64,000 nucleotides of DNA from a virus. Lineage: Duplodnaviria; Caudoviricetes. The stretch lies in IMG/VR virus record IMGVR_UViG_3300042477_000769. One strand, 5' to 3'. Positions 31,816-59,278 of this stretch are shown here, piece after piece (within the stretch, counting starts at the first letter, position 1; each line of letters begins with the position of its first letter). The notes beneath the pieces are model-generated. The model saw only the letters and a list, made by a program, of their open reading frames with translations, did not search any database and was not told the DNA's origin. The translations under genes and the position numbers were made by a program.

Positions 31816-32931
31816 ATGAAAATTTGTTGGTTTGGGTTCTTAGCCAAGAACCATTCTTGGTCGATTGTAGCACAGAACATTACCCGTGAACTCATAAAAC
31901 TAGGTCATCAGGTAGATTTATTTTCTACCAATGGTACTCAATATTTCCCCAATGATCTGCGTCCCCACCTAAAAGGTTATGTCGAAGAAGGCGATGATAA
32001 GGTCATTGGCAAAGAATTAGATTTAGTCTATGACATGCAATTATCATACACCGCATTAAGAAATTTTCCTAATTATTTCCTTCGAGGAAATACTAATAGA
32101 TTTGGTATCTGGAATTATGAAACCACTATCTTACCTAAAGCTTTTGCTAAATACCATAAGTATGTAGATAAAGTGGTCCCCTCGTCTCAATTTTCTAAAA
32201 AAATATTTGTCGATAATGGTATGCCAGAATCTTGTCAAGTGGTTATCCCACATGGCATTACATTGGAGCGTTTTCAAAACTTAGGAAAATACCCATTACA
32301 AACCAATAAGAAAATTAAAATATTAGCCAATATTGCTCAACCTCATCTCCGGAAGAATATTCCAGGGCTCTTAAAAGCCTGGGGTAAAGCATTTACTAGG
32401 GCAGATGATATTTGTTTAGTGTTAAAGATCTCTAAGAGGGGGCCTAATCCCATGTTTGATATACCTTTTAATGAGGTATTTAATCAATTCAAGAAGGAAT
32501 TTAAGAACCATGCCGAGATTGAGATAATTGATACGTTTATTCCGGATATTGAAACGTTGTATAATGCGTGCGAGGGGGTGTTTACGATGACGCACGCTGA
32601 GTGTTTCTGGCTACCAGGCCTAGAGGCGTTTGCCGCCAATAAGCTAGTCATCAGCCCCCGCTACGGAGGTCAACTAGACTATTTAAATGACGATAACTCT
32701 ATTTTAATTGATGGTAAGTTAATTCGAGCCGATACTCGAATGCAATATTGGGAACCATCTCCTTATGCAGCAGTGTTTGATCCTGATATTAATCAAGCCG
32801 CTGAAAAGCTAAAAGATGTCTATCATAATTATGGCGATTATATGAAAAAATTCTCTCCGTTAATGCAAGAGATTATACCTAATTATTCTTGGACTAAAGT
32901 AGCTCAACAATTTGTTGATTTAGCCAAATAA
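31816..32931 (+). CDS. GT-B fold glycosyltransferase, family 4
   Basis: N-terminal MKICWFG...RELIKLGHQVDLF, RKNIPGLLKAW, and the E-X7-E motif (HAECFWLPGLEAFA) followed by RYGGQLDYL. Confidence 0.85.
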   Translation: MKICWFGFLAKNHSWSIVAQNITRELIKLGHQVDLFSTNGTQYFPNDLRPHLKGYVEEGDDKVIGKELDLVYDMQLSYTALRNFPNYFLRGNTNRFGIWNYETTILPKAFAKYHKYVDKVVPSSQFSKKIFVDNGMPESCQVVIPHGITLERFQNLGKYPLQTNKKIKILANIAQPHLRKNIPGLLKAWGKAFTRADDICLVLKISKRGPNPMFDIPFNEVFNQFKKEFKNHAEIEIIDTFIPDIETLYNACEGVFTMTHAECFWLPGLEAFAANKLVISPRYGGQLDYLNDDNSILIDGKLIRADTRMQYWEPSPYAAVFDPDINQAAEKLKDVYHNYGDYMKKFSPLMQEIIPNYSWTKVAQQFVDLAK

Positions 32932-34047
32932 ATGCCACCAGAATTACTTAAGATCCAGGAGTTAATAAAAGGGAAGGGTGCTTGCTTAAGTAAAGATTAT
33001 ATTAATTCTCGGTCTTATTTAGAATTTAAATGTCATAATGGTCATTATTTCAAATCGCCTTATTATCGTATTATTAATGGTCATTGGTGTAGCCACTGCG
33101 CCAACAATGTTAAATTAACTATTAATTCAATTAATGAGCAATTAAAACATAAACATGTTACTTGTATTTCTGATATCTATTTAAATAATAAAGAGCCATT
33201 AACATGGAAGTGTAATTTATGTGATTATCAATTTTCATACAATAAGAACTATATGGATCGTAGCTTTACGCAATGTTATAATTGCAAGATTCAGGCTTGC
33301 GTTTCAAAAATAGAAGAGAGAGTTAAGTTATTAGATGGTTATTGGGTAGAGAAAAACTATTCTCAATCTCATCAAAAATTAAAGTTTACTTGTAGTTCCG
33401 GCCATAGTTTTAGTTTAACTTATAATCGATTAATTAATTTTCAAGCTTGGTGCCCTACTTGTACTAGGCAAAATAATTTGAGTGAAGAAATTTGCCGAGC
33501 CCATTTTGAACAATTATTAGGTTACAAATTTCCATCCGTCAGACCTAATTGGCTTAAAAAAGATAATGGTTATAATCTAGAATTAGATGGTTATTGTGCA
33601 GAATTAAATTTAGCTTTTGAACATCAAGGCATTCAACATTATCAAGATATTTTTAATAAATTGCATCAGACCCAAGAAAATGATAAATTGAAGGCAGACT
33701 TATGCTCACAACAAGGTGTGAAGCTAATTATCATTCCCCAATTATTTAGATTAACTAAATTGTCAGAATTAACTGATGTCATTATTCAAGAGTGTGATAG
33801 GTTAAATATCAGGGTGGAGAAAAAGAATATTGATTATTCTGCTTGTTATAAGCCAAAGTTTTTGAAGAAATATCAGGAGATAGCGGCTAGTCGTGGAGGT
33901 AAGTGTTTGTCGACTGAATATTTAGGAAGTACTACTCATAAATTATGGTGGGAATGTCGAAAGAAACATCGATGGGAACAATTTCCATATGTTATAGATA
34001 AGGGACATTGGTGCCCGATATGTAAGGATAAGAATGTCAAAATATGA
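32932..34047 (+). CDS. Free-standing endonuclease: four Zn-ribbon repeats plus a Vsr/PD-(D/E)XK-like domain (putative homing endonuclease)
   Basis: Repeats of GxCLSxxYIN...LxWxCxxGH...WCPxC. Nuclease-like EEICRAHFEQ...RPNWL...LELDGY...AFEHQGIQHY. Abuts the GT4 stop codon and overlaps the next gene. Confidence 0.7.
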   Translation: MPPELLKIQELIKGKGACLSKDYINSRSYLEFKCHNGHYFKSPYYRIINGHWCSHCANNVKLTINSINEQLKHKHVTCISDIYLNNKEPLTWKCNLCDYQFSYNKNYMDRSFTQCYNCKIQACVSKIEERVKLLDGYWVEKNYSQSHQKLKFTCSSGHSFSLTYNRLINFQAWCPTCTRQNNLSEEICRAHFEQLLGYKFPSVRPNWLKKDNGYNLELDGYCAELNLAFEHQGIQHYQDIFNKLHQTQENDKLKADLCSQQGVKLIIIPQLFRLTKLSELTDVIIQECDRLNIRVEKKNIDYSACYKPKFLKKYQEIAASRGGKCLSTEYLGSTTHKLWWECRKKHRWEQFPYVIDKGHWCPICKDKNVKI

Positions 34048-34729
34048 TTTTAAATTAGATATGTCATCTGATAATTCTAATTCGGTAATATTAAGAAATA
34101 TCAAGCCTAATTCTAAAGTATTAGAGTTAGGTTGTGCTTATGGAAGAATGACTAAATACCTAAAACAAGAATTAAATTGTCAAGTAGATGCAATTGATGT
34201 TGATGAAGCTGCCGGATCGGTAGCCGCTAATTGGGCCCATAGAAGTTTTGCGGGCGATTTAGATGATCTTAATTTGTGGACTGAATTGCCTCCTGATTGT
34301 AATAATTATGATTATATTATTTTAGCAGACGTGTTAGAACATTTAAGAAAACCAGCTGACGTCTTATTAGCCGCCAAAAAGCTGTTGAAAAAGAATAGTT
34401 TAAGCCATGAAGGTGGTTCCTTATGGATTAGTATTCCTAATACGGCGCATAATGCAGTCTTAATTGATTTATTAAACGATAAGTTTATTTATCGTCAAGT
34501 AGGTTTATTAGATGAAACTCATATTAAATTATTTACTATTAATTCATTATTAGAAATGATTCAAGATACTGGATTAACAGTTAAGTCTAGAATTGATTTA
34601 CCATTAGCAGTAGAGCATACAGAGTTTAATAATAGTTATAGCGATCTTCCTCCAGAAGTAACTAGCTTTCTCCAGCAAAGAGAATTAGGAGAAATTTATC
34701 AATTTGTTATGGAATTAAAGGATTTATGA
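34034..34729 (+). CDS. Class I SAM-dependent methyltransferase (glycan-associated type)
   Basis: Motif I VLELGCAYG, YDYIILADVLEHL, ISIPN, GLLDETHIKLFT. This type is commonly found beside or fused to glycosyltransferases. Confidence 0.85.
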   Translation: MSKYDFKLDMSSDNSNSVILRNIKPNSKVLELGCAYGRMTKYLKQELNCQVDAIDVDEAAGSVAANWAHRSFAGDLDDLNLWTELPPDCNNYDYIILADVLEHLRKPADVLLAAKKLLKKNSLSHEGGSLWISIPNTAHNAVLIDLLNDKFIYRQVGLLDETHIKLFTINSLLEMIQDTGLTVKSRIDLPLAVEHTEFNNSYSDLPPEVTSFLQQRELGEIYQFVMELKDL

Positions 34730-35418
34730 TATTATCAATAGTTATTCCAGTTTATAATAAATATAATTTTACTCGCGCTTGTTTACAAGATTTATCTCAA
34801 TTACCCAAAGACCATGAAATTATTGTGGTAGATAATGGTAGTTCTGACGAAACCGAAAGCCAGTTATCAACTATGCCTGGTATAGTTTATCATCGTAATG
34901 TTGAGAATTTAGGCTTTGCTAAAGCATGCAATATTGGTTATGGTCTAGCTACGGCGCCTAATGTTTTATTTTTAAATAATGATATTCGAGTTCAATCCAA
35001 TCATCAAACTTGGACTCAAGAAATTATTAAGCGGTGTCCCTATGCTTTAGTTGGGCCCACCATGGGTCAATTAGATAATAATTTAGCTTTTGTCCAAGAA
35101 GCCAATCGTGCATTACCTGGAAAATCTTATATGTCAGGTTGGTGTTTAGGAGCTTCGAAAGAAATTTGGAATAAATTGGAGATACCGAGAGAGAGTGGCG
35201 GGGGAGCGCCGCAGGTTTTTTCGGAAGAGTTTGGCTTGGCGTATTTTGAAGATACAGACTTGTCTTTCCGTGCTAAAAAACTCCACCTTCCCACCCAAGT
35301 CGTTTCCATTCCAGTCGTACATTTTGGTAAACAAACTAGCAAACAACTCAATACTCATCAATTATATTCTCAAGCTCGCCAAATTTTTATTAAAAAATGG
35401 CGCAATGAAAAAATATAA
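34726..35418 (+). CDS. GT-A fold glycosyltransferase, family 2
   Basis: LSIVIPVYN, IIVVDNGSSD, NLGFAKACNIG, LFLNND, YFEDTDLSFRA. Confidence 0.88.
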   Translation: MILSIVIPVYNKYNFTRACLQDLSQLPKDHEIIVVDNGSSDETESQLSTMPGIVYHRNVENLGFAKACNIGYGLATAPNVLFLNNDIRVQSNHQTWTQEIIKRCPYALVGPTMGQLDNNLAFVQEANRALPGKSYMSGWCLGASKEIWNKLEIPRESGGGAPQVFSEEFGLAYFEDTDLSFRAKKLHLPTQVVSIPVVHFGKQTSKQLNTHQLYSQARQIFIKKWRNEKI

Positions 35419-36358
35419 CAAATTATCTAAATCAGATTATTTAGCAATCTGTCAGCAATTAGCTGAGCGTCAAGGTGGCAAATGTGTATCTGAGTGTTAT
35501 GTTAATACTCACTCCCATTTATTATGGGAATGTCAGCAAGGTCATACTTGGCAGGCGATGCCCTCTAATATCAAACAAGGAAAATGGTGTCCTTATTGTC
35601 AGGGGAATGCGAAATTAACTCTTGATAAATGTCGCCAAGTAGCCAAGAAAAATAAAGGTAAATGCTTATCTGATAACTATATTAATAGTTCTAGCTTATT
35701 GGAGTGGCAATGTCAATATGGTCATATATGGCAGGCTACTTATAATAATGTTAATAGTAAGCATTCTTGGTGCCCGCAATGTTCCAGTTTGATTGGAGAA
35801 AAAATTTGTCGTTTATTTTTTGAACAATCATTTGGTGTAGCTTTCAAGAAAACCCGGCCAGAATGGTTACTTGGTGTTAATGGGGCTGTTTTAGAATTAG
35901 ATGGATATAATCCGCAATTAAAAATTGCCTTTGAATATCAAGGAAAACAGCATTACCAAATAGATTGTTTTTTTGTTAAAAACCAGCAGCAGTTATGTCA
36001 AAGAATGGCAGCTGATTCTTTAAAAAAAGAGTTGTGCTGTAGAAATAACATTATTTTATTTCAAATTCCTTATTTTAATAAATTAGACATCGAGGAGATC
36101 CATGATTATCTATATCAAGCGGTCAGTCAGCGCTTTCCGATCCAGAGAATAACTCTAAATTTAGAATCTTTATATGATTCAAAAATTGAAAAATATAAAG
36201 AATTAGCAAAATTGAATGATGGATATTGTGTGTCTGATCATTATATTAATAGCTATCAAAAATTGAGGTGGCAATGTCAAGAAGGCCATCAATGGCAGGC
36301 TTTGGGATATTCTATTGAACGAGGGCATTGGTGCCCTAAATGCAGGAATAAAAAGTGA
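35405..36358 (+). CDS. Second Zn-ribbon repeat / Vsr-like endonuclease (paralogue of 32932-34047), 317 aa
   Basis: Three CxxGH...WCPxC repeats and EKICRLFFEQ...RPEWL...LELDGY...AFEYQGKQHY. Likely start is ATG 35405; the track extension from 35195 lies inside the GT2 gene. Confidence 0.7.
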   Translation: MKKYNKLSKSDYLAICQQLAERQGGKCVSECYVNTHSHLLWECQQGHTWQAMPSNIKQGKWCPYCQGNAKLTLDKCRQVAKKNKGKCLSDNYINSSSLLEWQCQYGHIWQATYNNVNSKHSWCPQCSSLIGEKICRLFFEQSFGVAFKKTRPEWLLGVNGAVLELDGYNPQLKIAFEYQGKQHYQIDCFFVKNQQQLCQRMAADSLKKELCCRNNIILFQIPYFNKLDIEEIHDYLYQAVSQRFPIQRITLNLESLYDSKIEKYKELAKLNDGYCVSDHYINSYQKLRWQCQEGHQWQALGYSIERGHWCPKCRNKK

Positions 36359-36816
36359 ATATATTAAAAAAATTGATCTACCGTAGTTTTTATTTTTTAT
36401 CCTCTTGCATAAGAGGGCAAGACAAATTTAAAAAAATTGTAATAGATGATTATGGAAGCATAAAATATTATTTCAATAGCCAGCTACATCGAGAAGATGG
36501 TCCAGCGATAGAAGGTGCTCGTGGCCATAAAGAATGGTGGATTCATGGCCAACGACATCGAGTAGATGGTCCGGCCATAGAATATGTTTATGGAAATAAA
36601 CATTGGTATCTTCATGGTGAACTCCATCGAGAAGATGGTCCAGCAGTAGTATTAGCTAACGGATAGAAAGAATGGTATCGTCATGGTCAACTCCATCGAG
36701 AAGATGGGCCAGCCATAGAAAAGGCTAATGGCTATAAATATTGGTACCTGCAAGGTAAAGTATATAATACAGAAGAAGAATATTTGCGAGTAATTAAGCT
36801 AAAAGCTTTATGGTAA
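36355..36816 (+). pseudogene. HREDGPA-repeat protein A with one in-frame TAG at 36664-36666
   Basis: The frame continues past the TAG with a further intact repeat and the same C-terminus (KLKALW-stop) as paralogues B and C. The TAG sits where sister repeats have TAT/AAT/CAT. Confidence 0.75.
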
Positions 36817-37471
36817 AGTATGCAAGAAATTAAAATAGATGATCATGGAACTAAATATTATTATTGGAATGGTAATCTTCATCGAGAAGATGGTCCGGCA
36901 GTAGAATATGCTAATGGATATAAAGCTTGGTATCGTCATGGTCTACGTCATCGAGAAGATGGCCCAGCCAGAGAATATTCTGATGGACTAAAAGAATGGT
37001 ACCTTCATAATAAACTTCATCGAGAAGATGGTCCAGCCATAGATCAGGCTAATGGATATAAACACTGGTATCTTCAGGGTAAAAAATATTCTAAAAAAGA
37101 ATATTGGCGAATGGTTAAGTTACAGGCTTTATGGTAAACTTATGCAAGAAATTGAAATAGATGAATATGGCACTAAAAGATATTATTGGAATGGTCAGCT
37201 ACATCGAGAAGATGGTCCAGCCATAAAATATCCTGATGGATCTAAAGAGTGGTGGCTTGAGGGTCTTCTCCATCGAGCAGATGGTCCTGCTCAAGAATGG
37301 CCTACACATAGATATAAAGCTTGGTATCTTTATGGGAAATTCCATCGAGAAGATGGTCCTGCTAGAGAATGTGTTGATGGAAAAGAATGGTATTATCATG
37401 GGAAACTCCATCGAGAAGATGGCCCAGCCATAGAGTATACTAATGGAAATAAAGAATGGTATCTTCAAGGC
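36481..37471 (+). repeat. Eleven coding repeats of about 69 bp (23 aa) across three tandem paralogues
   Basis: Near-invariant core CATCGAG(A/T/C)AGATGG. Four units in A, three in B, four in C. One 72-bp and one 66-bp variant in C. Confidence 0.9.
36820..37137 (+). CDS. HREDGPA-repeat (MORN-variant/YwqK-like) protein B
   Basis: MQEIKIDDHGTKYY, three repeats, then KLQALW. Confidence 0.8.
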   Translation: MQEIKIDDHGTKYYYWNGNLHREDGPAVEYANGYKAWYRHGLRHREDGPAREYSDGLKEWYLHNKLHREDGPAIDQANGYKHWYLQGKKYSKKEYWRMVKLQALW

Positions 37472-37528
37472 ACAGAATATACAGAAGAAGAATATGGGCG
37501 GTTAGTTAAATTAAAAGCTTTGTGGTAA
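37142..37528 (+). CDS. HREDGPA-repeat protein C (128 aa)
   Basis: ATG 37142 gives MQEIEIDEYGTKRYY, matching the start of paralogue B. Four repeats, then KLKALW. Confidence 0.8.
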   Translation: MQEIEIDEYGTKRYYWNGQLHREDGPAIKYPDGSKEWWLEGLLHRADGPAQEWPTHRYKAWYLYGKFHREDGPARECVDGKEWYYHGKLHREDGPAIEYTNGNKEWYLQGTEYTEEEYGRLVKLKALW

Positions 37529-37546
37529 GAAAGTATTAGGTGTAAC

Positions 37547-38383
37547 ATGCCGGAAGGCGTTGAAGTTTTAATTAGTTCAGAAATGATTAAGCCATTAGTG
37601 ATAAATCAAACTATCACCAAGTTACAAATCGGACCCACTAGCCGATATGCTCGACAGCCATTAAAAGGCTTTACTCAATTTGAAAAACTGATTCCACAAA
37701 ACAATTGTGTAATTAAGGATATTAAAACTTATGGAAAATTTATGTATTGGTCCTTTACTAATGATTGGTACATGTTCTCTACTTTTGGCATGAGCGGTCA
37801 GTGGAGCCCATCGGCTACTCATCATTTATGTTTACAATTAGAATTAATTGATGAAAATCAGACGCAAACTACAATCTGTTTTAATGATCCTCGCCATTTT
37901 GGAACAATTCAATTTACCAATAATAGTCAAGAACTATCTAAAAAATTAGATAGTTTGGGCTGGGATCCATTATCTCAAGCTAATAATGAGCAATATATTA
38001 ATTTTGTTATTAATTCGTGTAGAAAAAAACATAAGCCGATTGGTCAGTTATTAATGGATCAAAGCTTATTTGCCGGTGTTGGCAATTACATTCGAGCCGA
38101 AGCGTTATATTTATCTAGAATCTCTCCTTGGAGATTAGGGTCTTCTTTATCTAAAGAAGAATTATCTCAACTATGTCAAGATATCATTAAAGTCATGAAA
38201 GATTCTTATCAACATCAAGGCGCTACTATCCGAACTTATGAGGATGCGTTTGGAGCCGAAGGTAAACATGCCAACTTTTTCAAAGTTTATGGGAAATCTC
38301 ACGATGAGATGGGTAATTTAGTAATTTCTGAATTAACTCCAGAAGGTCGAACTATTCACTGGTGTCCTGCCGTACAATTCTAA
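37547..38383 (+). CDS. mutM: Fpg/Nei family DNA glycosylase/AP lyase, zincless-finger type
   Basis: N-terminal PEG catalytic motif (MPEGVEV), YGKFMY, FNDPRHFG, H2TH LLMDQSLFAGVGNYIRAEAL. C-terminal GRTIHWCP lacks the four-Cys finger. Confidence 0.88.
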   Translation: MPEGVEVLISSEMIKPLVINQTITKLQIGPTSRYARQPLKGFTQFEKLIPQNNCVIKDIKTYGKFMYWSFTNDWYMFSTFGMSGQWSPSATHHLCLQLELIDENQTQTTICFNDPRHFGTIQFTNNSQELSKKLDSLGWDPLSQANNEQYINFVINSCRKKHKPIGQLLMDQSLFAGVGNYIRAEALYLSRISPWRLGSSLSKEELSQLCQDIIKVMKDSYQHQGATIRTYEDAFGAEGKHANFFKVYGKSHDEMGNLVISELTPEGRTIHWCPAVQF

Positions 38384-38404
38384 ATTTTACAGAAAGATTA
38401 AAAA

Positions 38405-39391: not shown

Positions 39392-39393
39392 TA

Positions 39394-50044: not shown

Positions 50045-51010
50045 ATGAGCTTATTGACACCTAGACCTACATATGCACCTTTTGAGTATCCCCAAGCATA
50101 TCAATATTGGGAGTTACAACAACAATCACATTGGCTTCATACTGAAATAGCTATGGCGGCTGATATTAACGATTGGAAGTTAAACTTAACGCCTTCAGAG
50201 AAACATGTTATTGGTCATATTTTAAAAGGATTTACTCAGTCTGAAGTTTTTATTCAAGAGTATTGGGGACAAATGGTAGGTAAGTGGTTTAAAAAACCTG
50301 AAATACAAATGATGGCCGCCACGTTTTCTGCTTTTGAATCAATTCATGCTGTCTCTTATGCTTATCTTAATCAATCTTTAGGTTTAGAAGATTTTGATTC
50401 CTTTTTACATGAACCAACAGCCAAAGCGAAGATTGATCGTTTAATCACTACTAAAGGAAAATCCAAAGAAGAGATTGCTAAAAGTTTAGCAATTTTTTCG
50501 GCTTTTAATGAAGGCGTTAATTTATTTTCTTCTTTTGCCGTGTTATTGAATTTTTCTAGATTTAATAAATTAAAAGGGGTAGGTCAAATTATTGCTTTTT
50601 CTATTAAAGATGAATCTTTGCACTCTAATGCCGGTTGTTGGTTATTTAGAACTTTAGTGGAAGAATTCCCAGAAATAATGACTGATGAATTAAAATCAGA
50701 AATAAATGATGCTGCTAGACTAACAGTAGAATTAGAAGATGCCTTTATTAATAAAGCTTTTGAACAAGGTCCCATTGAAGGTTTAGATCCTCATGATCTA
50801 AAAGCTTTTATTAGATATCGAACTAATACAAAACTAAATGATTTAGGTTTAAAAAAGATTTGGAAAAATATAGATAAACAAGCTATGGAACGTATGTCTT
50901 GGTTTGATACCATGTCAGCAGGAGTGGCTCATGCTGATTTTTTTGCCGCACGAGTATCTGATTATGCCAAGGGCATTATGGACTTTTCTACTATTTGGAG
51001 TGATGAATGA
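50045..51010 (+). CDS. nrdB: Class I ribonucleotide reductase, beta subunit
   Basis: PFEYP, HWLHTEI, GFTQSE, FESIHAVSY (radical Tyr retained), FNEGVNLFSSF, IKDESLH, DFFA. Confidence 0.93.
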   Translation: MSLLTPRPTYAPFEYPQAYQYWELQQQSHWLHTEIAMAADINDWKLNLTPSEKHVIGHILKGFTQSEVFIQEYWGQMVGKWFKKPEIQMMAATFSAFESIHAVSYAYLNQSLGLEDFDSFLHEPTAKAKIDRLITTKGKSKEEIAKSLAIFSAFNEGVNLFSSFAVLLNFSRFNKLKGVGQIIAFSIKDESLHSNAGCWLFRTLVEEFPEIMTDELKSEINDAARLTVELEDAFINKAFEQGPIEGLDPHDLKAFIRYRTNTKLNDLGLKKIWKNIDKQAMERMSWFDTMSAGVAHADFFAARVSDYAKGIMDFSTIWSDE

Positions 51011-52704
51011 GCGATTTAGAAACATTAAAAAAAAATAATGAAGCTCCTGACTGGATGAATGATGAAGGCTACCGTACTTTGTCTGGTGGATATTTATTAG
51101 AGAATGAAACTCCTAAACAAATGTATAAAAGAGTAGCTCAAGCGGCAGCATCTTATTATGATAATTCTGCATATTATGCAGAAAAGTTTTTTGATATTAT
51201 GTGGAAAAATTGGTTATGCCCAGCTTCTCCAGTATTAAGTAATATGGGAACTAATAGAGGTTTACCTATTTCCTGCAATACCATTCATGTAGGTGATAGT
51301 ATTGATTCTATTTTTTCTAAAAACTATGAATTAGCCATCTTATCTAAAAATGGTGCAGGAGTAGGCATTTACTTTGGCGATATTCGAGGGCGTGGAGCTA
51401 AAATTAAAGGGAACGGATTATCAGAAGGAACGGTTCCCTGGGCAAAAGTCTTTGATACTACCACCGTGTCAGTTAATCAAGGCTCTACTAGACGTGGCGC
51501 TTCTGCTATTTATTTACCTATTGATCATCCAGATATTGAAGAATTTATTAATATTCGGCGACCTATTGGGGACATGAATCGTAGATGTTTAAATATTAAC
51601 CATGCCGTCTGTATTAGTAATTCTTGGATGGAGCAAATGTTAGCTGGAGATTCAGCTAAAAGAAAATTATGGGAAGAAATCCTAAAAGCTAGAGTAGAGA
51701 CTGGTGAGCCATATATTTTCTTTACTGATAATGTAAATGAACAAAGCCCGGATTGTTATAAGCATAATAACTTAACAGTTAAAGGATCTAATATTTGTAG
51801 TGAAATTACCCTGTATACTGATCCTGATCATAGCTTTGTCTGCTGCCTATCATCTCTAAATTTAGTTAGATGGGAGGAGTGGAAAGATACTGATACCGTG
51901 CAATTATCTGTCAGATTTTTGGATGCGGTACTGTCTGAATATATTAAAAAAACAGCAGGCGTTAAAGGATTTGAAGCATCTAGAAATTCCGCTATTAAAG
52001 GAAGAGCTATTGGTATTGGAGTTCTAGGTTGGCATACACTATTACAACAGCGCTGGTTGGCTATGGATAGTTTTGAAGCCATGCAATTAAATGGCCAAAT
52101 TTTTAGAAATATTAGATTAAAAGCCGAAGAAGAAACCAAACTCTTAGCCCAAGAATTGGGGGAACCTGAGTGGTGTCAAGGATTTAATCGTCGAAATACT
52201 CATTTAATTGCGGTAGCGCCGACTGTGTCTAATTCTACCATTTCTGGAGGACATAGTGCTGGAGTAGAGCCTATTTCAGCTAATATTTTTATTCAAAAAT
52301 CGGCTAAAGGGACGTTTATTAGAAAAAATTCTACCCTAGAATCTTTATTAGAAAGTAAAAATAAAAATACTTCCGAAGTATGGAAGTCCATAAACGAACA
52401 AAATGGCAGTGTGCAACATTTAGAGTTCTTAACTGAACAAGAAAAAAATGTATTTTTAACAGCCAGAGAAATTAATCAACATACCTTAATTAAACAAGCC
52501 GCTCAGCGTCAAAAATGGATTGATCAGTCACAATCAATTAATTTATTTTTTGCGAATAATTCAACTCCTAAATATATACATGATGTTCATATTGCCGCCT
52601 GGAAAAATGGACTAAAAACATTATACTATTTACGTAGTGATGGCGTTATACGAGGAGATCTCGCCTCTCGTAGTGAGGCAGAATGTAAAGCTTGCGAAGC
52701 TTAA
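51007..52704 (+). CDS. nrdA: Class I ribonucleotide reductase, alpha subunit, short form without ATP-cone
   Basis: PASPVLSN, ISC, GSNICSEI (N-C-E), VCCLSS, APTVSNS, SQSINL, TLYYLR, C-terminal CKAC. ATGA overlap with nrdB. Confidence 0.93.
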   Translation: MSDLETLKKNNEAPDWMNDEGYRTLSGGYLLENETPKQMYKRVAQAAASYYDNSAYYAEKFFDIMWKNWLCPASPVLSNMGTNRGLPISCNTIHVGDSIDSIFSKNYELAILSKNGAGVGIYFGDIRGRGAKIKGNGLSEGTVPWAKVFDTTTVSVNQGSTRRGASAIYLPIDHPDIEEFINIRRPIGDMNRRCLNINHAVCISNSWMEQMLAGDSAKRKLWEEILKARVETGEPYIFFTDNVNEQSPDCYKHNNLTVKGSNICSEITLYTDPDHSFVCCLSSLNLVRWEEWKDTDTVQLSVRFLDAVLSEYIKKTAGVKGFEASRNSAIKGRAIGIGVLGWHTLLQQRWLAMDSFEAMQLNGQIFRNIRLKAEEETKLLAQELGEPEWCQGFNRRNTHLIAVAPTVSNSTISGGHSAGVEPISANIFIQKSAKGTFIRKNSTLESLLESKNKNTSEVWKSINEQNGSVQHLEFLTEQEKNVFLTAREINQHTLIKQAAQRQKWIDQSQSINLFFANNSTPKYIHDVHIAAWKNGLKTLYYLRSDGVIRGDLASRSEAECKACEA

Positions 52705-52709
52705 TTTTT

Positions 52710-52735
52710 AAAAGGCGTCTTTACAGGCGCCTTTT
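52710..52735 (+). terminator. Intrinsic (possibly bidirectional) terminator after nrdA
   Basis: AAAAGGCGTCT-TTAC-AGGCGCCTTTT, an 11-bp stem with one G-U, starting 6 nt after the stop codon. Confidence 0.85.
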
Positions 52736-52791
52736 GTATAAGTATTATTGACTAAAATTTGTTACTACTAATTAAAACATATTATTATAAA

Positions 52792-53175
52792 ATGAAAGCC
52801 ACGATTCTTCTCAATCATAATGAGAATACCCATCAAGTAGAAGAAGAAGAAAAAACTAGATTTCTTCGAAATTTATTAGACCAGATTGGTCTACCAATTC
52901 AAGAATTTTGGAATGAAGAGCTATCCTTATCTGTTCATCAACGGATGAAATTACGTTCATTATTAACAACTTATGAAATCCAAGTTATAGATGATTTGGA
53001 TAGTCATATGCAGGTCTTTGTAGAAGGAGAATTAATTGCCGAGTGGTTTAAGCCTACTTATAAATTAAAACGAGATCTAAAAGAAAGAGATCCGAAAAAA
53101 CAAATGTATCTTGAAATGGAAGTTAATTGTTGGTCACTTTTTGAAGAATCTGAAAATCAGGAACACACACTATAA
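52792..53175 (+). CDS. Hypothetical protein (127 aa)
   Basis: First ATG in frame is at 52792. TAATG overlap with phoH. Confidence 0.65.
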   Translation: MKATILLNHNENTHQVEEEEKTRFLRNLLDQIGLPIQEFWNEELSLSVHQRMKLRSLLTTYEIQVIDDLDSHMQVFVEGELIAEWFKPTYKLKRDLKERDPKKQMYLEMEVNCWSLFEESENQEHTL

Positions 53176-54488
53176 TGAGAAAAATTTATATCTTTGATAC
53201 TTCCGCCTTAATTTATGACCCTTGTGCCTGGAAACAATTTGCCGATAGTGATATCATCATTCCCATAGCTGTTCTCAATGAATTAGATAAACTAAAAAAA
53301 CAATCTGGTGAAGTCGGTAGAAATGCTCGGGTCTGTATTAAATCATTAGATGAATTATCGAATGATTCAGATATTATTACTGGAGTTTTAATACCAGATC
53401 TAAATACAGTAGTAAAAATTGATGCTACTTATCGTAATACTAATAATCCTGAATATGCTGGATTTGGTGACCCAGATTATGGTGATACTCAAATTTTAGC
53501 ATGTGCTTATGATAATTTAAAAATTTACCAACATAATGTCTATTTTGTTAGCAATGATATTAATCTGAGAGTTAAAGCTAAATCTCGAGGCTTAAATGCT
53601 ATTTCTCATGAAAATGATAAATATCATTTAACTGAATTATACCCGGGATTTATTACTATAGAAGATGAAGAAGCAGGCGTAAATCTTCAACAAGAAGGTT
53701 TTATTGATCCCTTGCAATATGGATTTTTCCACCTGAATCCTAATGAATGCATTTTGTTTACTGATTCTAAAGGTGAAGGGATTGCCTTAGGTCGTAAAGT
53801 TTCTAGAAATAAAATAAAATTTGTGAAAAAACAGTTCCCATGGAATATCAATAGTCGAAATCAAGAGCAAATCTTTGCCGTAGATTTATTAATGGATAAA
53901 TCCGTTAATTTAGTAACTCTCATTGGTCAAGCTGGAACCGGTAAAAGTTTATTGGTATTAGCTTCCGCATTAGAATTGGTAATTAGCAAAAAGGAATATA
54001 ATAAATTTGTTATTTATCGACCTATTCAGGCAGTAGGCAATGAAATCGGTTATTTGCCGGGATCATTAGAAGAAAAACTAGCTCCTTGGTTCCAAGCTAT
54101 CATGGATAATTTTGAGGTATTATTTAGCAACAAAGTTAATGGAGATTGGCGTCGAGATTTAGAAATGTTCCAAAAAAAAGGTAAAATTGAAATGGAAGCG
54201 ATTACCTATATTCGTGGTAGAAGTATTCCCAATTCTATAATTTTGGTCGATGAGGCCCAAAACTTATCTAAAGAAGATGTGAAAACAATTCTAACTCGTG
54301 CTGGAGAAGGAACTAAAGTTATTTTAACTGGCGATATAGAGCAAATTGATAATAATATTTTGGATGCTTCCAATAATGGTTTAACTCATGTAATTGAAAA
54401 ATTTAAAACTTCTGATCTAGCAGGTCATATTACTTTGACCAAGGGAGAGCGTAGTAGATTAGCCTCCGAAGCAGCTGAAATTTTGTAA
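53175..54488 (+). CDS. phoH: PIN-domain / PhoH ATPase fusion (PhoH2/YlaK-like)
   Basis: PIN: IFDTSAL, IPIAVLNELDKLK, SNDINLRVKA. PhoH: GQAGTGKS, GYLPGSLEEK, YIRGRS, VDEAQN, TGDIEQID, ERSRLA. Confidence 0.9.
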   Translation: MRKIYIFDTSALIYDPCAWKQFADSDIIIPIAVLNELDKLKKQSGEVGRNARVCIKSLDELSNDSDIITGVLIPDLNTVVKIDATYRNTNNPEYAGFGDPDYGDTQILACAYDNLKIYQHNVYFVSNDINLRVKAKSRGLNAISHENDKYHLTELYPGFITIEDEEAGVNLQQEGFIDPLQYGFFHLNPNECILFTDSKGEGIALGRKVSRNKIKFVKKQFPWNINSRNQEQIFAVDLLMDKSVNLVTLIGQAGTGKSLLVLASALELVISKKEYNKFVIYRPIQAVGNEIGYLPGSLEEKLAPWFQAIMDNFEVLFSNKVNGDWRRDLEMFQKKGKIEMEAITYIRGRSIPNSIILVDEAQNLSKEDVKTILTRAGEGTKVILTGDIEQIDNNILDASNNGLTHVIEKFKTSDLAGHITLTKGERSRLASEAAEIL

Positions 54489-54497
54489 GAGGTTGTT

Positions 54498-54758
54498 ATG
54501 AATGATTCTTCTGAAATTAAAACAAATACGGCTAAACTATCTGAAGTAGATAGATTAACATTAGAATTGGCCAAAAGTAGAAAACAAATCGCTTTAGCGG
54601 AAGCTAAAGCGGCGTTGGCTAATAATGAAAATGCCGAATTATCATATAAGTATGTAGTATTACAATTATATATGAAATATGGATTAACTGAATTGGATGC
54701 CATTAATGAAAATGGCACTATAATTAAAAATGGAGCGGTTACATATGATAAAGAATAA
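54498..54758 (+). CDS. Hypothetical coiled-coil protein (86 aa)
   Basis: SD GAGG. Heptad-rich sequence. Confidence 0.7.
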   Translation: MNDSSEIKTNTAKLSEVDRLTLELAKSRKQIALAEAKAALANNENAELSYKYVVLQLYMKYGLTELDAINENGTIIKNGAVTYDKE

Positions 54759-55113
54759 AGTAGTCAGAGTCTCTGAAGAGACTTCAAAAGTAGTAGCTGC
54801 ACCTCAAACATTAGACGTTGAACCTAAACTATTGGAACATAAAATTCCAGTAGAAGAATTGCCTCCAAAACCTGAATTTAATTTTGAAGAATTAATCTCT
54901 CTAATTAAAGTAAGAGAGTATGTTCATAATTCTATTGGAAATTTTATGATCGACCGCCCGACGATTAATTATTTAAATCAATCACTATCTATGATTGATA
55001 AAAAAATTATTACTCAATTGAAATCAACTGATTTTAAAAATTATCTTAACCCGACAGAAGTAAAAGAATCTGCTACTGAAGTAGCAGTAATAAAATCTAG
55101 CATTGTTAAGTAA
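54745..55113 (+). CDS. Hypothetical protein (122 aa)
   Basis: ATG 54745 gives the short overlap typical of this window. Confidence 0.6.
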   Translation: MIKNKVVRVSEETSKVVAAPQTLDVEPKLLEHKIPVEELPPKPEFNFEELISLIKVREYVHNSIGNFMIDRPTINYLNQSLSMIDKKIITQLKSTDFKNYLNPTEVKESATEVAVIKSSIVK

Positions 55114-55128
55114 TGCTACTTAAGGTAA

Positions 55129-55974
55129 GTGAAAATGAGAGTAGCTAGCAAAAGTTCTTTTAATGATAACAATTTAATTAAATTAAAAGACCAATTATGG
55201 ATTGATAAGCAAAGAATAGCGGGAAGTATTGTTGCTAAAACATTATCTAAATTAGAATCTTTAGTATTAGATAAATGCCAATTTTCTGCTGTAGAATTAA
55301 ATGAAATAGGGGAAGCAATCATTAAAGAATCCGGTGGTAGCCCCACCTTTAAAGGTTATAAGGGATTTCCAGCCGGAGTCTGTATTTCTATTAATAAACA
55401 ATTAGTGCATGGTATTCCTAAAGATATTTCCTTAAAAGAAGGAGATATTATTAGTTTTGATTTAGGAGTTACTTATGAAGGTGCTATTGCAGATAGTGCC
55501 ATTACTTGCATTTATGGAAAGCCAAAAACTAATAGACATGTAGAGTTACTGCAAGCTACTGAAGGAGCTTTGCTAGAAGGAATACGAGCTATTGGACTAG
55601 GTAAAAGATTAGGATGTATTGGTAAAGCTATTTATAAATATGGCAGGAATAAAGGATTTAGTGTGGTCAATAACTATGGAGGACATGGTTTAGAATGGGA
55701 TCAACCTCATGCCGCTCCTTTTGTCGCTAATAAAAGTACAGTAAATGAAGGAATTAGAATAGTTCCCGGATTAGCAATTGCCATTGAGCCTATGTTGGTG
55801 ATTGGGCCAGCTGACACTTATGTTAGTAATGATGGCTGGACTGTGATGACCGGAGATATTGGCGCTCATGCAGAACACTCTATCTTTATTCATCCAGAGT
55901 ATATAGAAATTATGACCTGGCGAGAAGGTTCTACTTACCCCAAAATAATACCATTTAAAAACTATGAAAATTGA
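55129..55974 (+). CDS. map: Methionine aminopeptidase, type I
   Basis: FKGYKGFPAGVCISINKQLVHGIP, DLG, DSAIT, GGHGL, IEPML, AHAEHSI (D-D-H-E-E metal ligands). Start could be GTG 55129 or ATG 55135. Confidence 0.92.
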   Translation: MKMRVASKSSFNDNNLIKLKDQLWIDKQRIAGSIVAKTLSKLESLVLDKCQFSAVELNEIGEAIIKESGGSPTFKGYKGFPAGVCISINKQLVHGIPKDISLKEGDIISFDLGVTYEGAIADSAITCIYGKPKTNRHVELLQATEGALLEGIRAIGLGKRLGCIGKAIYKYGRNKGFSVVNNYGGHGLEWDQPHAAPFVANKSTVNEGIRIVPGLAIAIEPMLVIGPADTYVSNDGWTVMTGDIGAHAEHSIFIHPEYIEIMTWREGSTYPKIIPFKNYEN

Positions 55975-56137
55975 ATTTGAAGATAAAAGCTATATAGAGT
56001 GCACTAATGCTGAGCATCCTGGCAAAATTATTATTACTATTTCTGCCAGAGATCATCAGAATAATTTAAAAAAAATAACTAATGCAGTTGAATTAACGAT
56101 GGAACAGTTTAAACAATTGTTTTCGGATGTTAAGTAA
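55964..56137 (+). CDS. Hypothetical protein (57 aa, not in ORF track)
   Basis: MKIEFEDKSYIECTNAEHPGKIIITISARDHQNNLKKITNAVELTMEQFKQLFSDVK overlaps the map stop by 11 bp. Confidence 0.6.
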   Translation: MKIEFEDKSYIECTNAEHPGKIIITISARDHQNNLKKITNAVELTMEQFKQLFSDVK

Positions 56138-56186
56138 ACTATGCTAAATTTAAGGCATGTAGTTGACACAAACTATAGGAGTTAAT

Positions 56187-56600
56187 ATGAGTGGATTTAA
56201 AAAAGTGAGTGAATTAGCAGATAAGTTTGAGCTAAAACTTAAGACAGCTCAAACAATTGAAGGCGAAGATCCTAAGTCAGTGGTGTCTGATGCTTTTTTT
56301 GGACCACATGGAGAGCAAGAATTTAATGCTGCTATTTTAAATCCTGGTAGTAATTTCTTAAAAGTATTACCTGAAAGCGTCAAGACGTGTCATATCGGAG
56401 CGACAGTTGATTCTTCTGCAGGAATGGCGGATTTTCTAGTGACTTGTGAACCTGTAGCTAATGCTGGCACAGTATCTGCGTTAAAAGCAGCGTTAATGAA
56501 AGATTATTTAGCTGTTTTTAAGAAAACTCCACAAGCTAAAGTAAAAGAAGCTAAAGCGGGAGTTAAAGCATCTCATCCTCGTATTATTCAAGTTTCTTGA
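56187..56600 (+). CDS. Hypothetical protein (137 aa)
   Basis: SD AGGAG at 56177-56181 supports ATG 56187 over TTG 56163. Confidence 0.7.
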   Translation: MSGFKKVSELADKFELKLKTAQTIEGEDPKSVVSDAFFGPHGEQEFNAAILNPGSNFLKVLPESVKTCHIGATVDSSAGMADFLVTCEPVANAGTVSALKAALMKDYLAVFKKTPQAKVKEAKAGVKASHPRIIQVS

Positions 56601-56636
56601 ATAGCATACTAGCAACCATAACTATATAGGTTATAT

Positions 56637-57293
56637 ATGTCTTTTCCACAATTAGTACAAGCGGCTCAACAATATTTTCCTAAACTTAAAGTTAAATATA
56701 AAAATAATTCTAAGTTCATGAAATTGTTATCATTTTTATTGTTTTTCAATAAAAATTTCATGACTAGTTATACTACGACTATTGGATCAACCATTTATTT
56801 TCCGTCTAAAGATACAGTATTGGGCAGACCCACTTCATCTATGATAACATTGATGCATGAGTTAGTTCATATTTATGACGCACAAAAACTAAATACCTTA
56901 GTATTTAGTTTATTATATTTAACTCCTCAAATTTTAAGCTTATTATTAATGCCATTATTTTTTGTCTTACCTTGGTGGCTAGTATTATTGATGATAATGG
57001 TATTAGTAGCTCCTATTCCTTCATTTTTTAGAATGAAGTTTGAAAAGAGAGCATATTTTGTTTCGCTATATGTGATGCATAAATTATCTAGTAAGTTTTC
57101 TTTTAAGCTGTCTTTAGAGGCCGAGAAAGATTCCATGTTGCGGCAATTTAAGGGAGCTGATTATTATTTTATGTGGCCTTTTTCATCTTTAGAAAAAGAA
57201 TTTGACGCTGGCTTGTTAAAAATCAAAAATAATCAAAGACCTATAGAAGATCCAGTTTTCGACATTATCGATGAATTATTAGAAAAAGTTTGA
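56637..57293 (+). CDS. Membrane-associated zincin-type metallopeptidase (HExxH)
   Basis: TLMHELVHIYD, then a hydrophobic hairpin LVFSLLYLTPQILSLLLMPLFFVLPWWLVLLMIMVLVAP and FEKRAY (candidate third ligand). Confidence 0.6.
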   Translation: MSFPQLVQAAQQYFPKLKVKYKNNSKFMKLLSFLLFFNKNFMTSYTTTIGSTIYFPSKDTVLGRPTSSMITLMHELVHIYDAQKLNTLVFSLLYLTPQILSLLLMPLFFVLPWWLVLLMIMVLVAPIPSFFRMKFEKRAYFVSLYVMHKLSSKFSFKLSLEAEKDSMLRQFKGADYYFMWPFSSLEKEFDAGLLKIKNNQRPIEDPVFDIIDELLEKV

Positions 57294-57317
57294 AAAAAAC
57301 TACTTGCCTGATATAAT
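57290..57317 (+). promoter_or_regulatory. Promoter TTGAAA-N16-TATAAT with extended -10 (TGA-TATAAT)
   Basis: -35 at 57290-57295, TG at 57309-57310, -10 at 57312-57317. ATG lies 7 nt downstream. Confidence 0.7.
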
Positions 57318-57324
57318 AGAGGTC

Positions 57325-58071
57325 ATGGCAAGTAGTTTTTATATTTATATGATTCATAACATTATCAATAATAAAGTGTATGTTGGTAAAACTTATCATG
57401 TAAATAATCGTTGGTCTAAACATTTAAAAGTGGCGAGCTCCTCTCGTATTCGTGAAAAATTTCATCTGCATTATGCTATTTCTAAGTATGGTAAAGATAA
57501 TTTTGTCTTTTCTATTCTTCAAAGTTTTCCTTGCGAACAATTAGCTAACCAAGCAGAAAAATATTGGATTAATTATTTTAATTCTATTGCTACTGGTTAT
57601 AATTTAACTGCTGGTGGTGAAGGTTGCCTAGGTAGAAAATTATCTGAGGAAACAAAGAATAAAATACGGCAAAAATCTTTGGGAAGAAAACACTCCAGCC
57701 AAACAAAATCTTTATTAAGAGAATTAAATCGCGGTAAAATGCCAAGTAATATTAGCCAGTTAGCGGCATTAAATTCTGGTAAAAAACTAACTATTCAACA
57801 TAAAAGTAATATTAGTTTATCTAAAACTGGTAAATCTTTTAGTAAGCAACATAAACAAAATTTATCTGCTAGTCTAAAAGGATTATTTAAAGGTGAGAAG
57901 AATCCTCAAGCAAAACTCACAAAACAATTAGTCTTAGAAATAAGAAATAAATATCACAGTAATCAATATACTAAAACTGCCTTAGCACAAGAATATAATA
58001 TTTCTAGAAGTCAAATTAATAGAATTATTAGCAATAATACCTGGAAAAATTTAGGAAGCACTGATGAGTAA
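57325..58071 (+). CDS. Free-standing GIY-YIG homing endonuclease with NUMOD3-like repeats
   Basis: FYIYMIHNIINNKVYVGKT...RWSKH, EKYWI, GYNLTAGGEG, then repeats GRKLSEETKNKI / GRKHSSQTK / GKKLTIQHKSNIS / GKSFSKQHKQNLS, and GEKNPQAKLT plus an HTH. Confidence 0.88.
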   Translation: MASSFYIYMIHNIINNKVYVGKTYHVNNRWSKHLKVASSSRIREKFHLHYAISKYGKDNFVFSILQSFPCEQLANQAEKYWINYFNSIATGYNLTAGGEGCLGRKLSEETKNKIRQKSLGRKHSSQTKSLLRELNRGKMPSNISQLAALNSGKKLTIQHKSNISLSKTGKSFSKQHKQNLSASLKGLFKGEKNPQAKLTKQLVLEIRNKYHSNQYTKTALAQEYNISRSQINRIISNNTWKNLGSTDE

Positions 58072-59278
58072 TACTTTTGATGTTGGAATTATTGGCGCTG
58101 GCATGGCTGGGTCTTTTGCGGCTATGAAGCTAGCTAAAGATTGTAAGAACGTGAAAGCGATTATGTTTGATTTGGGACGACCGCCGCTGAAGCGCAGACG
58201 GCAGCTAGAGGGCTGGCTGGGCTGTCTCCCCAACAGCGACGGTAAACTTTACCTCAGTAATTTACAAAAAGTCACGGAGGTGGTCGGGGCTCGTAAATGC
58301 AAATCGTCATATAATTTTTTTGAAAAAACGATAGGTAATATAGGAACTTTTAAAACTACTAAAGACAAATCTCCACATCTCTCCATGGAGAAAAAAATAA
58401 AAAAAATAGGATATGATATTTCATTAAATGATTATATTCAAATATATCCTAAAGAGATCCATGCATTATCTAAGTATATGTCGGAATTTATTGAATTACA
58501 AAACAATATTACTTATAGTTTTGATAATGAAGTAAAGGCTATTCATAAACAAAAAGGTAGTTTTACTATTACCACAGATACTCAAGAATTTAAATGTAAA
58601 AAAATAATTATTGCTGTTGGTCGAAGTGGATGGAGATGGGTCAAGAATTTATTCTCTAATTTTGGTATTATAGAAAATAATGATATAGCTAAATTTGGCA
58701 TTAGAATTGAATTAAACGCTCCGAATATGAAAGACTTTAATAAGTCTAATTGTACGCTTTTAAAAAATGATGATATTGAAATTGGTCCGTTTTCCTGGTA
58801 TGGGACAGTGATACCAGAAGATCATTTAGATATGGCGATTTCTGCCTTTCGATCAAATGAAAATAGATGGAAAACAGATAAAGTATCTTTTAATTTAATT
58901 GGTCATCGACCATTTCCTGGCACTGGATTTGAACAGACAGATAGAATTGGAAAATTAACTTTCATTCTAGCAAATGATAGAATTATTAAAGAAAAAGTTA
59001 GCGCTATTATTAGCGGGAAAAGTAAAATTTCTATTATTCCAGAGTATAAATGGTTACAAGATATATTAGTAGAGCTATCTTTAGCTATACCAGAAATTGC
59101 TACTAAAGCATATTATCATGTCCCTACTATCATGCCACTGGCTCCTAAAATAAATTTAGGAAATAATTTAGAGTCAGAAATAACAGGTATGTTTGTAGCC
59201 GGTGAAAGTGCCGGAATTCATGGATTATTAGCAGCGGCTACTACTGGAATTGTTGCAGCTACAGAAATTATTAAATAA
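58064..59278 (+). CDS. FAD-dependent oxidoreductase (COG2509-like)
   Basis: Rossmann GIIGAGMAG, SDGKL motif, IAVGRSG, C-terminal GMFVAGESAG..GLLAAATTG. Confidence 0.75.
   Translation: MSNTFDVGIIGAGMAGSFAAMKLAKDCKNVKAIMFDLGRPPLKRRRQLEGWLGCLPNSDGKLYLSNLQKVTEVVGARKCKSSYNFFEKTIGNIGTFKTTKDKSPHLSMEKKIKKIGYDISLNDYIQIYPKEIHALSKYMSEFIELQNNITYSFDNEVKAIHKQKGSFTITTDTQEFKCKKIIIAVGRSGWRWVKNLFSNFGIIENNDIAKFGIRIELNAPNMKDFNKSNCTLLKNDDIEIGPFSWYGTVIPEDHLDMAISAFRSNENRWKTDKVSFNLIGHRPFPGTGFEQTDRIGKLTFILANDRIIKEKVSAIISGKSKISIIPEYKWLQDILVELSLAIPEIATKAYYHVPTIMPLAPKINLGNNLESEITGMFVAGESAGIHGLLAAATTGIVAATEIIK

Follow-up and report, generated by a model that had tools for sequence, protein, structure and literature searches.

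The viral DNA of IMG/VR record IMGVR_UViG_3300042477_000769 (Duplodnaviria; Caudoviricetes), a stretch of 64,000 nucleotides that we refer to as the window, carries three genes for free-standing endonucleases, each next to a conserved gene. Two of these, Z1 and Z2, encode paralogous zinc-ribbon proteins and adjoin the genes for a GT4-type and a GT2-type glycosyltransferase; the third encodes a GIY-YIG enzyme and adjoins the gene for an oxidoreductase. Within each of the three conserved genes there is a patch of G- and C-ending codons, and it is these patches, their polarity and their relation to the endonuclease genes that are described here. Coordinates of all of the features are listed in Table 1.

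Endonuclease genes and the genes beside them

Z1 begins directly after the stop codon of the GT4 gene, and the GIY-YIG gene, whose product has a helix-turn-helix (HTH)-like C-terminus, overlaps the start of the oxidoreductase gene by 8 nt. A Pfam scan of the window found no recognisable endonuclease besides these three. The nuclease cores of the Z proteins, when searched alone, gave no Pfam match, and a fold comparison was needed. In the AlphaFold model of Z2, which has a predicted local distance difference test score (pLDDT) of 84, residues 128-246 match Vsr (1cw0_A: Z 9.4, root-mean-square deviation 3.0, 106 residues aligned) and the catalytic domain of I-Bth0305I (3r3p_B: Z 8.5, root-mean-square deviation 3.4, 98 of 98 residues aligned), with a Foldseek E-value that is not significant. 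Across 12 homologues, E164, D166, E177 and H183 vary little or not at all, and these acidic and histidine residues are candidates for the catalytic ones. The model indicates that the Z2 core has a Vsr-type, PD-(D/E)XK-like nuclease fold. Like the Vsr-like (EDxHD) enzyme I-Bth0305I, on which the modelled Z2 core superposes, these proteins are phage-borne and mobile; unlike it, neither Z1 nor Z2 is encoded in an intron, and both stand free and carry three to four DUF4379 zinc-ribbon modules.

Of 78 related loci, most have the GT4 and GT2 genes side by side, and Z homologues follow GT4 in four and GT2 in five. Similarly, in about 37 related loci a 218-aa gene is followed directly by the oxidoreductase gene and the GIY-YIG gene is absent; a homologous GIY-YIG gene occurs at the same site in four loci only (L022, L026, L032 and L136). 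Because most syntenic relatives do not have them, the endonuclease genes can be recognised by comparison as mobile insertions beside conserved genes, in agreement with the first-pass annotation of the window. The gene order GT4, Z, methyltransferase, GT2 is also seen in L126, and the methyltransferase is present without a Z gene in L071, L072, L079 and L101, which suggests that the interval between GT4 and GT2 is a variable cassette region of the glycosylation cluster.

Sequence upstream of the window was reached stepwise by exact-protein look-ups, giving 18.8 kb of the same genome (L138), whose overlap with the window is 100% identical. Two further endonuclease-like genes are found there, one with an HTH and an HNH/EndoVII-like region and one with zinc ribbons, and the window together with the first 9.3 kb upstream forms a combined scan of 73.3 kb.

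Table 1. Conserved genes, endonuclease genes and GC3 patches (GC3, G+C content at third codon positions). Coordinates are those of the window, or of the upstream sequence where prefixed L138; P values are from the polarity test at four-fold degenerate sites.
Feature	Coordinates	Strand	Polarity P	Remarks
GT4-type glycosyltransferase, host of patch 1	31816..32931	+		Pfam Glyco_transf_4, Glycos_transf_1; 79 syntenic homologues in IMG/VR megaphage contigs
Patch 1 (GT4)	32419-32664 (maximal GC3 segment); earlier limits 32521-32700	+	0.012 (split after 32590)	G arm to ~32590-32610, then C arm; top GC3 interval
Z1 free-standing endonuclease	32932..34047	+		DUF4379 zinc-ribbon repeats round a Vsr-like core; Pfam DUF4379; PHROG 559, 681 'endonuclease'
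Class I methyltransferase	34034..34729	+		Pfam Methyltransf_23; with Z1 between GT4 and GT2
GT2-type glycosyltransferase, host of patch 2	34726..35418	+		Pfam Glycos_transf_2, 5.9e-18
Patch 2 (GT2)	35176..35316	+	0.046	G arm to ~35221-35245, then C arm; third-highest GC3 interval
Z2 free-standing endonuclease	35405..36358	+		Three DUF4379 zinc ribbons and a Vsr-like core, residues 128-246; Pfam DUF4379 5.8e-15; PHROG 559, 681, 9084 'homing endonuclease'
GIY-YIG free-standing homing endonuclease	57304..58071	+		NUMOD3 and HTH modules; Pfam GIY-YIG 3.6e-15, NUMOD3 4.5e-6; PHROG 314, 7168 'homing endonuclease'
FAD-dependent oxidoreductase, host of patch 3	58064..59278	+		Pfam GIDA, Pyr_redox_2; >1000 homologues
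Patch 3 (oxidoreductase)	58094..58288	+	0.26	G arm to ~58187-58208, C arm to ~58273, mixed tail; joint top GC3 interval
Oxidoreductase codons 40-42 (Pro-Pro-Leu)	58181..58189	+		Likely core of the GIY-YIG target, altered in carriers
Patch at sheath gene 3' end	L138:3402-3509		0.0096	GGGGG then CCCC; adjoins, directly upstream, the HTH and HNH/EndoVII-like gene
HTH and HNH/EndoVII-like endonuclease-like gene	L138:3547-4278			After the sheath gene; upstream of the window
Patch at 228-aa gene 3' end	L138:4768-4995		0.0002	Directly upstream of the zinc-ribbon gene
Zinc-ribbon endonuclease-like gene	L138:5011-5895			PHROG 681/559; upstream of the window
Patch at 224-aa gene 5' end	L138:5954-6049		1.0	Downstream of the zinc-ribbon gene

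GC3 patches lie beside the endonuclease genes

GC3 was scanned in sliding intervals of 40 codons across the 62 genes of the window, giving a mean of 8.2 G- or C-ending codons per interval with a standard deviation of 3.1. The three highest intervals, at 32556-32673 (26), 58171-58288 (26) and 35178-35295 (21), correspond to patches 1, 3 and 2, respectively; the three shifts in third-position composition recorded in the first-pass annotation are the three strongest in the window. Each patch also lies on the motif named for it there. Patch 1 covers the E262-x7-E270 motif of GT4. Patch 2 has the conserved YFEDTD core of GT2 at its centre and, in a codon alignment, both of its arms in loops that vary by insertion and deletion among relatives. 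Patch 3 covers GRPPLKRRRQLEGWLGCLPNSDGKLY and the oxidoreductase motif LPNSDGKLY; its GC3 is 0.68 compared with 0.17 in the rest of the gene, and it is the most extreme among 40 homologues. The point at which G-ending codons give way to C-ending ones is about 320, 160 and 140 bp from the endonuclease gene in patches 1, 2 and 3 (150-300 bp in the earlier estimate), and earlier hand counts of G- and C-ending codons on either side were roughly right, with those for patch 2 (12:2, then 1:9) exact.

The first 9.3 kb upstream gives an independent view, and its three strongest GC3 intervals abut the two new endonuclease-like genes. Over the 73.3 kb as a whole, the top five intervals all lie 47-320 bp from the edge of one of the five endonuclease genes, a distance within which only 4.8% of intervals fall (P=2.5e-7); of the top eight, six lie within the same distance. 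The next 9.5 kb upstream has no endonuclease gene, and no GC3 interval there is above 9/30. The association between patches and endonuclease genes, which the first-pass annotation had proposed for the window, is far beyond chance and is replicated in new sequence.

Patch 2 is crossed by additional open reading frames. The Z2 frame is open upstream to a GTG at 35195 (35195-35404), running through the patch and overlapping GT2 in another frame, and two antisense open reading frames of more than 70 aa also cross it. These are most likely by-products of local GC richness, with its fewer stop codons, and not genes.

Polarity of the patches

Polarity was tested at four-fold degenerate sites only, because in a two-fold codon the choice between a G and a C ending is set by the amino acid. 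The G and C labels were permuted within maximal GC3 segments that had been delimited by objective criteria. Four of the six patches are individually significant and in the same direction, with G-ending codons on the left and C-ending codons on the right (Table 1); the combined P is 1.6e-5 for all six and 1.9e-4 for the three new patches alone. The G-then-C order that had been ascribed to all three patches of the window survives this test in GT4 and GT2. In the oxidoreductase it does not reach significance at four-fold sites (P=0.029 when all codons are used), and there the order is partly forced by the protein, as KRRRQLE on the left and CLPNSDGKLY on the right impose part of the two-fold polarity.

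The codons themselves show the same order. Across the patches a given amino acid is encoded differently on the two sides, with CCG, GTG and GCG on the left and CCC, GTC and GCC on the right, and pyrimidine-ending two-fold codons end in C in 9/38 instances on the left versus 18/32 on the right (P=0.007). The control, a set of ten segments of high GC3 in homologous genes of other phages, is unpolarised (combined P=0.88), so neither the test nor the amino-acid sequence creates the polarity.

A four-fold switch statistic computed across the window ranks position 32614 first, 58205 second and 35272 joint third, the last being tied at 9 with 4255, a site away from endonucleases. At 32614 the statistic is 13, above the shuffled maximum of 11, and this is the only one of the three patch sites to exceed it. 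An equally strong switch of the opposite sense, C then G (statistic -11), occurs at 52159 in the gene for the large subunit of ribonucleotide reductase (51007-52704), with no GC3 enrichment and no nearby endonuclease; lying at the edge of the shuffled distribution, it may be due to chance.

The bias is defined by the base gained

At the four-fold sites of the five polar patches, codons of the G arms end in G 35 times, T 18 times, A 10 times and C six times, and those of the C arms end in C 33 times, T 14 times, A nine times and G seven times; the baseline for four-fold sites is T.446, A.306, C.144 and G.104. On the G arms, T-ending codons make up 18/69 (26% versus 44.6% expected, P=1.2e-3) and A-ending codons 10/69 (14% versus 30.6%), and on the C arms T-ending and A-ending codons are likewise both depleted (A-ending, P=2.3e-3), with P values for the two arms ranging from about 2e-4 to 2e-3. 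Since neither arm spares A- or T-ending codons, what defines the bias is the product base (G to the left, C to the right) and not an adenine source. The earlier description of the patches as A>G / T>C recoding, and its attribution to adenine-directed hypermutation, are not sustained by these counts. Relatives imply such changes as CCT>CCG, ACT>ACG and GTA>GTC, T>G and A>C transversions included; codon states taken from relatives as ancestral reflect family codon usage only, and we rely on the composition tests.

It had also been supposed that the protein was left unchanged. Patch 1 has five non-synonymous changes in GT4 (D253E, V254G, M266L, V277L and M290L) and patch 3 has one in the oxidoreductase (M42L, ATG>CTG), all absent from the close relatives compared; in patch 2, the arms fall within the variable loops noted above. 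The patch-specific non-synonymous changes are mostly weak-to-strong (A or T to G or C), e.g. GAT>GAG (D253E), GTA>GGG and ATG>CTG. At four-fold sites, which the protein does not constrain, the patches are enriched for weak-to-strong change irrespective of the source base, as would be expected of GC-biased gene conversion.

Relatives and the candidate target site

Close oxidoreductase alleles without the GIY-YIG gene all read GRPPMKRRRQ, and Met42 is kept in every such allele that is at least 64% identical to the protein of the window. None of the five GIY-YIG-bearing alleles retains Met42: codon 42 encodes Leu in two, Ala in one and Gln in two, and two of the five are changed further at codons 39-41 and 51. 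Codon 42 is the best carrier-associated of 404 alignment columns (P=6e-3, uncorrected), and the best four-fold split of patch 3 falls exactly after it. From these comparisons, the GIY-YIG target plausibly lies in patch 3. A similar column-wise search for residues associated with carrier status in GT4 and GT2 yielded nothing convincing.

The closest homologues of the patch-bearing genes have at most 81% protein identity, and third-position identity to relatives is about 0.5-0.6 everywhere. It is lower inside the patches (0.32 versus 0.58, 0.41 versus 0.54, and 0.38 versus 0.56).

Twelve distinct relatives have homologous endonucleases at the same sites and no GC3 patches, and carrying these endonucleases does not in general lead to patches. 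Across relatives, GC3 patches are not associated with the presence of an endonuclease, and no Pfam endonuclease domain is found in the genes that adjoin the strongest patches of relatives. On this comparative evidence the strong polar islands belong to this genome and not to homing in general, and a lineage-specific factor is suggested because relatives with the same endonucleases do not have the patches.

Two observations on single relatives may be added. In L126 (4290-4320) the GT4 homologue, which lies beside a Z endonuclease, has a frameshift in a run of 11 T, at a notable position, precisely on the motif matching the switch of patch 1; we considered this as a repair scar and rejected it, the poly-T run being probably an assembly error. 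L024 and L100, which belong to one 181 kb IMG/VR contig, have unpolarised GC3-rich segments at the oxidoreductase and GT4 motifs with no adjoining endonuclease, which may go back to an endonuclease that once occupied the site or may represent resistance alleles.

Source phage, sampling and neighbouring genes

The window is 32.5% GC and 61 of its 62 called genes are on the + strand; G- and C-ending codons are rare, at about 13-15% of two-fold sites. Among the products are a baseplate-J protein, several very large structural proteins, a TubZ-like tubulin, DnaB, ribonucleotide reductase, PhoH and a glycosylation cluster. The source is an AT-rich freshwater (lake) megaphage, assigned as such because homologues of the window genes sit on IMG/VR viral contigs of 200-480 kb. 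A megablast of both loci against the INPHARED phages gave no match, and sequenced isolates thus include no near relative.

The segment 56600-59400 is present with 100% identity on contigs from at least 10 lake-water metagenome runs (X1-X13), filed under different studies, and no variants were seen, which suggests that the phage population is widespread and clonal. In contigs from four lake metagenome runs all matches were 100% identical and no endonuclease-free or AT-rich alleles were found; these are uninformative on population variants.

Directly after Z2 are three neighbouring genes (36355-37528) of repeated HREDGPA-containing units, which are MORN-like repeats. These are followed at 37547-38383, about 1.2 kb downstream of the endonuclease-rich locus, by a gene for a 278-aa protein that by eye resembles a DNA glycosylase of the Fpg/Nei type.

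Explanations for the patches

We tentatively read the patches as target-site footprints of the homing cycle or of break repair, formed by strand-asymmetric, GC-biased fixation, and would give this reading somewhat less than an even chance; the patches probably mark the target site of the nuclease. Each endonuclease, inserted beside a conserved gene, would cut the endonuclease-free allele inside the most conserved motif of that gene. In the carrier lineage, some 100-250 bp round the presumed cut would gain weak-to-strong substitutions wherever the protein tolerates them, with a strand asymmetry that flips near the cut, the + strand gaining G on the left and C on the right. On both sides of the break, G would thereby lie on the strand left as a 3' tail by resection. 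The mirror polarity that the first-pass annotation described as compatible with a break-centred process is present. Over many homing or repair events, correction of mismatches in heteroduplex would be biased toward GC, with the G-bearing strand winning, and the bias would act on the base that is fixed, since A-ending and T-ending codons are both replaced. The carrier allele would drift far from the AT-rich susceptible consensus, and this would contribute to self-immunity. The patches, their association with the endonuclease genes, the polarity, the product-defined bias, the insertion of the endonuclease genes and the association at codon 42 are observed; the positions of the cuts, the link to break repair and the mechanism of biased correction are inferred. 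We propose strand-asymmetric, GC-biased correction of this kind as the most economical model.

A more specific form of the footprint reading, which is possible and on balance rather doubtful, is a ratchet. Each homing or repair event would correct the heteroduplex flanking the cut toward the G-bearing strand, so that G builds up on the 3'-tail strand on both sides and a mirror-symmetric GC3 island comes to pinpoint the cleavage site, progressively immunising the carrier. The corrector might be the Vsr-like cores of the phage's own endonucleases or another short-patch system.

Several points weigh against reading the patches as footprints. Four-fold polarity is weak in patch 3 and absent from the patch in the 224-aa gene. 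All of the genes involved are on the + strand, and a polarity set by the direction of transcription or translation is inseparable from one centred on a break. Comparative support for a cut site is limited to the GIY-YIG site, where it fails correction for the 404 columns. To these must be added the twelve relatives with endonucleases and no patches, and the endonuclease-free relatives with unpolarised GC3-rich segments at the same motifs, in the oxidoreductase (L007, L024 and L003), GT4 (L067) and GT2 (L123). Synonymous sites are saturated with respect to all available relatives, and substitutions are not truly polarisable. Finally, we know of no phage enzyme in which the required correction in favour of the G strand has been demonstrated.

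Selection alone could act if AT-rich, consensus-like alleles were cut by the resident enzyme or by related enzymes of co-infecting phages; in a genome of A- and T-ending codons, synonymous escape would go mostly toward G or C, leaving a GC3 island without biased repair. Such escape has a precedent, since target polymorphism is known to spare the carrier alleles of free-standing endonucleases (reviewed in PMC2988022). It would also accommodate the alteration of oxidoreductase codon 42 in all five carriers, the fall in third-position identity within the patches, and the two-fold codons, which allow A>G or T>C as their sole synonymous change. What it does not predict are arms of G only and of C only at four-fold sites, where three alternatives exist; moreover, the 100-250 bp span is several times that of a usual recognition site, and relatives with the same endonucleases have one or few changes and no island. 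We regard selection alone as unlikely.

The order of the arms might instead be linked to expression, if a G-rich then C-rich stretch of transcript or non-template strand, either prone to R-loops or acting as a cluster of rare codons, tuned the neighbouring endonuclease gene or the gene junction. All of the affected genes are co-oriented, four of the six patches end 16-90 bp before the start codon of an endonuclease gene, and G- and C-ending codons are rare in this genome. Patch 1, however, ends 230 bp before Z1, patch 3 is downstream of its endonuclease gene, RNA of the patches folds no better than dinucleotide shuffles (sense-strand z-scores from -1.4 to +1.0), and a clustering of rare codons leaves the G-then-C order unexplained. 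An explanation from expression is accordingly distinctly unlikely. The same folding calculations bear on G-arm/C-arm hairpins selected in RNA or single-stranded DNA, the alternative named in the first-pass annotation, which we reject: although patch 3 allows a 64-nt hairpin to be drawn and patch 1 is closed by a G5/C5 stem, shuffling of dinucleotides gives minimum free energies equal to those of the seven segments (window patches, z = -0.01, 0.01 and -0.32; upstream, -1.4, 0.65, 0.98 and 0.12), and the idea has next to nothing left in its favour.

Homing co-converts flanking markers (PMC2790892, PMC2988022), and a patch might be a co-conversion tract that arrived with the endonuclease gene from a GC-richer relative. 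Relatives span 26 to 46% GC, and the window and L007 have in common an identical 23-nt run of C-ending codons, although the same 23-mer is bound to arise in any two alleles that encode an identical peptide and have each become C-ending independently. Against such a tract, the endonuclease genes are themselves AT-rich (those of L138 have a GC3 of 0.20-0.21, and window positions 57001-58000 are 29% GC), and the codons between patches 1 and 2 and their endonuclease genes are AT-rich as well (GC3 0.15 and 0.12). No sampled relative is nearer in a patch than in its flanks, and GC-rich relatives are unpolarised, such that a donor would not explain the polarity. Co-conversion is improbable.

Adenine-specific deamination of 3' single-stranded tails, with A>G on the left and T>C on the right, was the model first proposed. 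Two-fold codons fit it: on the left 26/38 purine-ending codons have gone to G and 29/38 pyrimidine-ending codons stay T, and on the right 18/32 pyrimidine-ending codons have gone to C. It fails at four-fold sites, where T-ending codons are depleted on the G arms and A-ending codons on the C arms, and relatives imply T>G and A>C transversions together with T>G non-synonymous changes; hypermutation in a single event would also have struck non-synonymous adenines. We reject it as very improbable.

Relation to known systems

The patches occur in a setting of ordinary intronless homing, the free-standing endonucleases being of the GIY-YIG and Vsr-like kinds. As with Seg and Mob of T4 and F-CphI of cyanophage (PMC2988022, PMC2790892), the endonuclease gene lies between conserved genes, is patchily distributed in syntenic relatives and accompanies a carrier allele that differs at the target, and the presumed target is in the adjoining conserved gene, within a few hundred base pairs. 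The difference is the 100-250 bp island of G- and then C-ending codons, which forms no part of the systems described; relatives with the same endonucleases are without it. Searches of the full-text literature gave no account of polar GC3 islands next to genes for homing endonucleases.

GC-biased gene conversion acts at eukaryotic recombination hot spots and has been proposed for bacteria (PMC4450053). The patches resemble its products in their local weak-to-strong gain, at synonymous and tolerated non-synonymous sites alike, in being defined by the product base, and in lying where repeated break repair would be expected. They differ in that the setting is a phage, in being tied to single endonuclease genes, and in that the G/C strand polarity flips within the patch, which the classical process does not predict.

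Asymmetric mutation centred on breaks is a second point of comparison. Clusters of APOBEC mutations occur at breaks. At meiotic breaks, a strand asymmetry centred on the break and arising from single-stranded repair intermediates is established, with C>N changes (PMC11922761). The likeness is in the mirror polarity on the two sides, the sign of which fits 3' tails rich in G and poor in C. The known cases, however, lose C on single-stranded DNA, a strong-to-weak change defined by its source, whereas here G and C are gained from A and T. Diversity-generating retroelements also produce targeted local sequence change in a phage gene, but here neither a reverse transcriptase nor a template repeat is present, and the changes, most of them synonymous, are not specific to adenine.

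Implications

If the patches are footprints of break repair, polar GC3 islands would be a sequence-only marker of the cuts made by free-standing homing endonucleases and inteins, which are normally found only by biochemistry. They would be the first indication known to us of a strand-asymmetric, GC-biased signature left by phage homing, and would link the biology of selfish elements to GC-biased gene conversion and break-induced mutagenesis. They would also explain local anomalies of codon usage in conserved phage genes, which can be mistaken for horizontal transfer or overlapping genes. Should the ratchet be true, it would be a phage counterpart of GC-biased gene conversion with a strand signature, and the target sites of endonucleases could be read computationally. 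Even without a mechanism, the association between patches and endonuclease genes (P about 1e-7, replicated) is robust, apparently undescribed, and testable in many endonuclease-rich jumbo phages.

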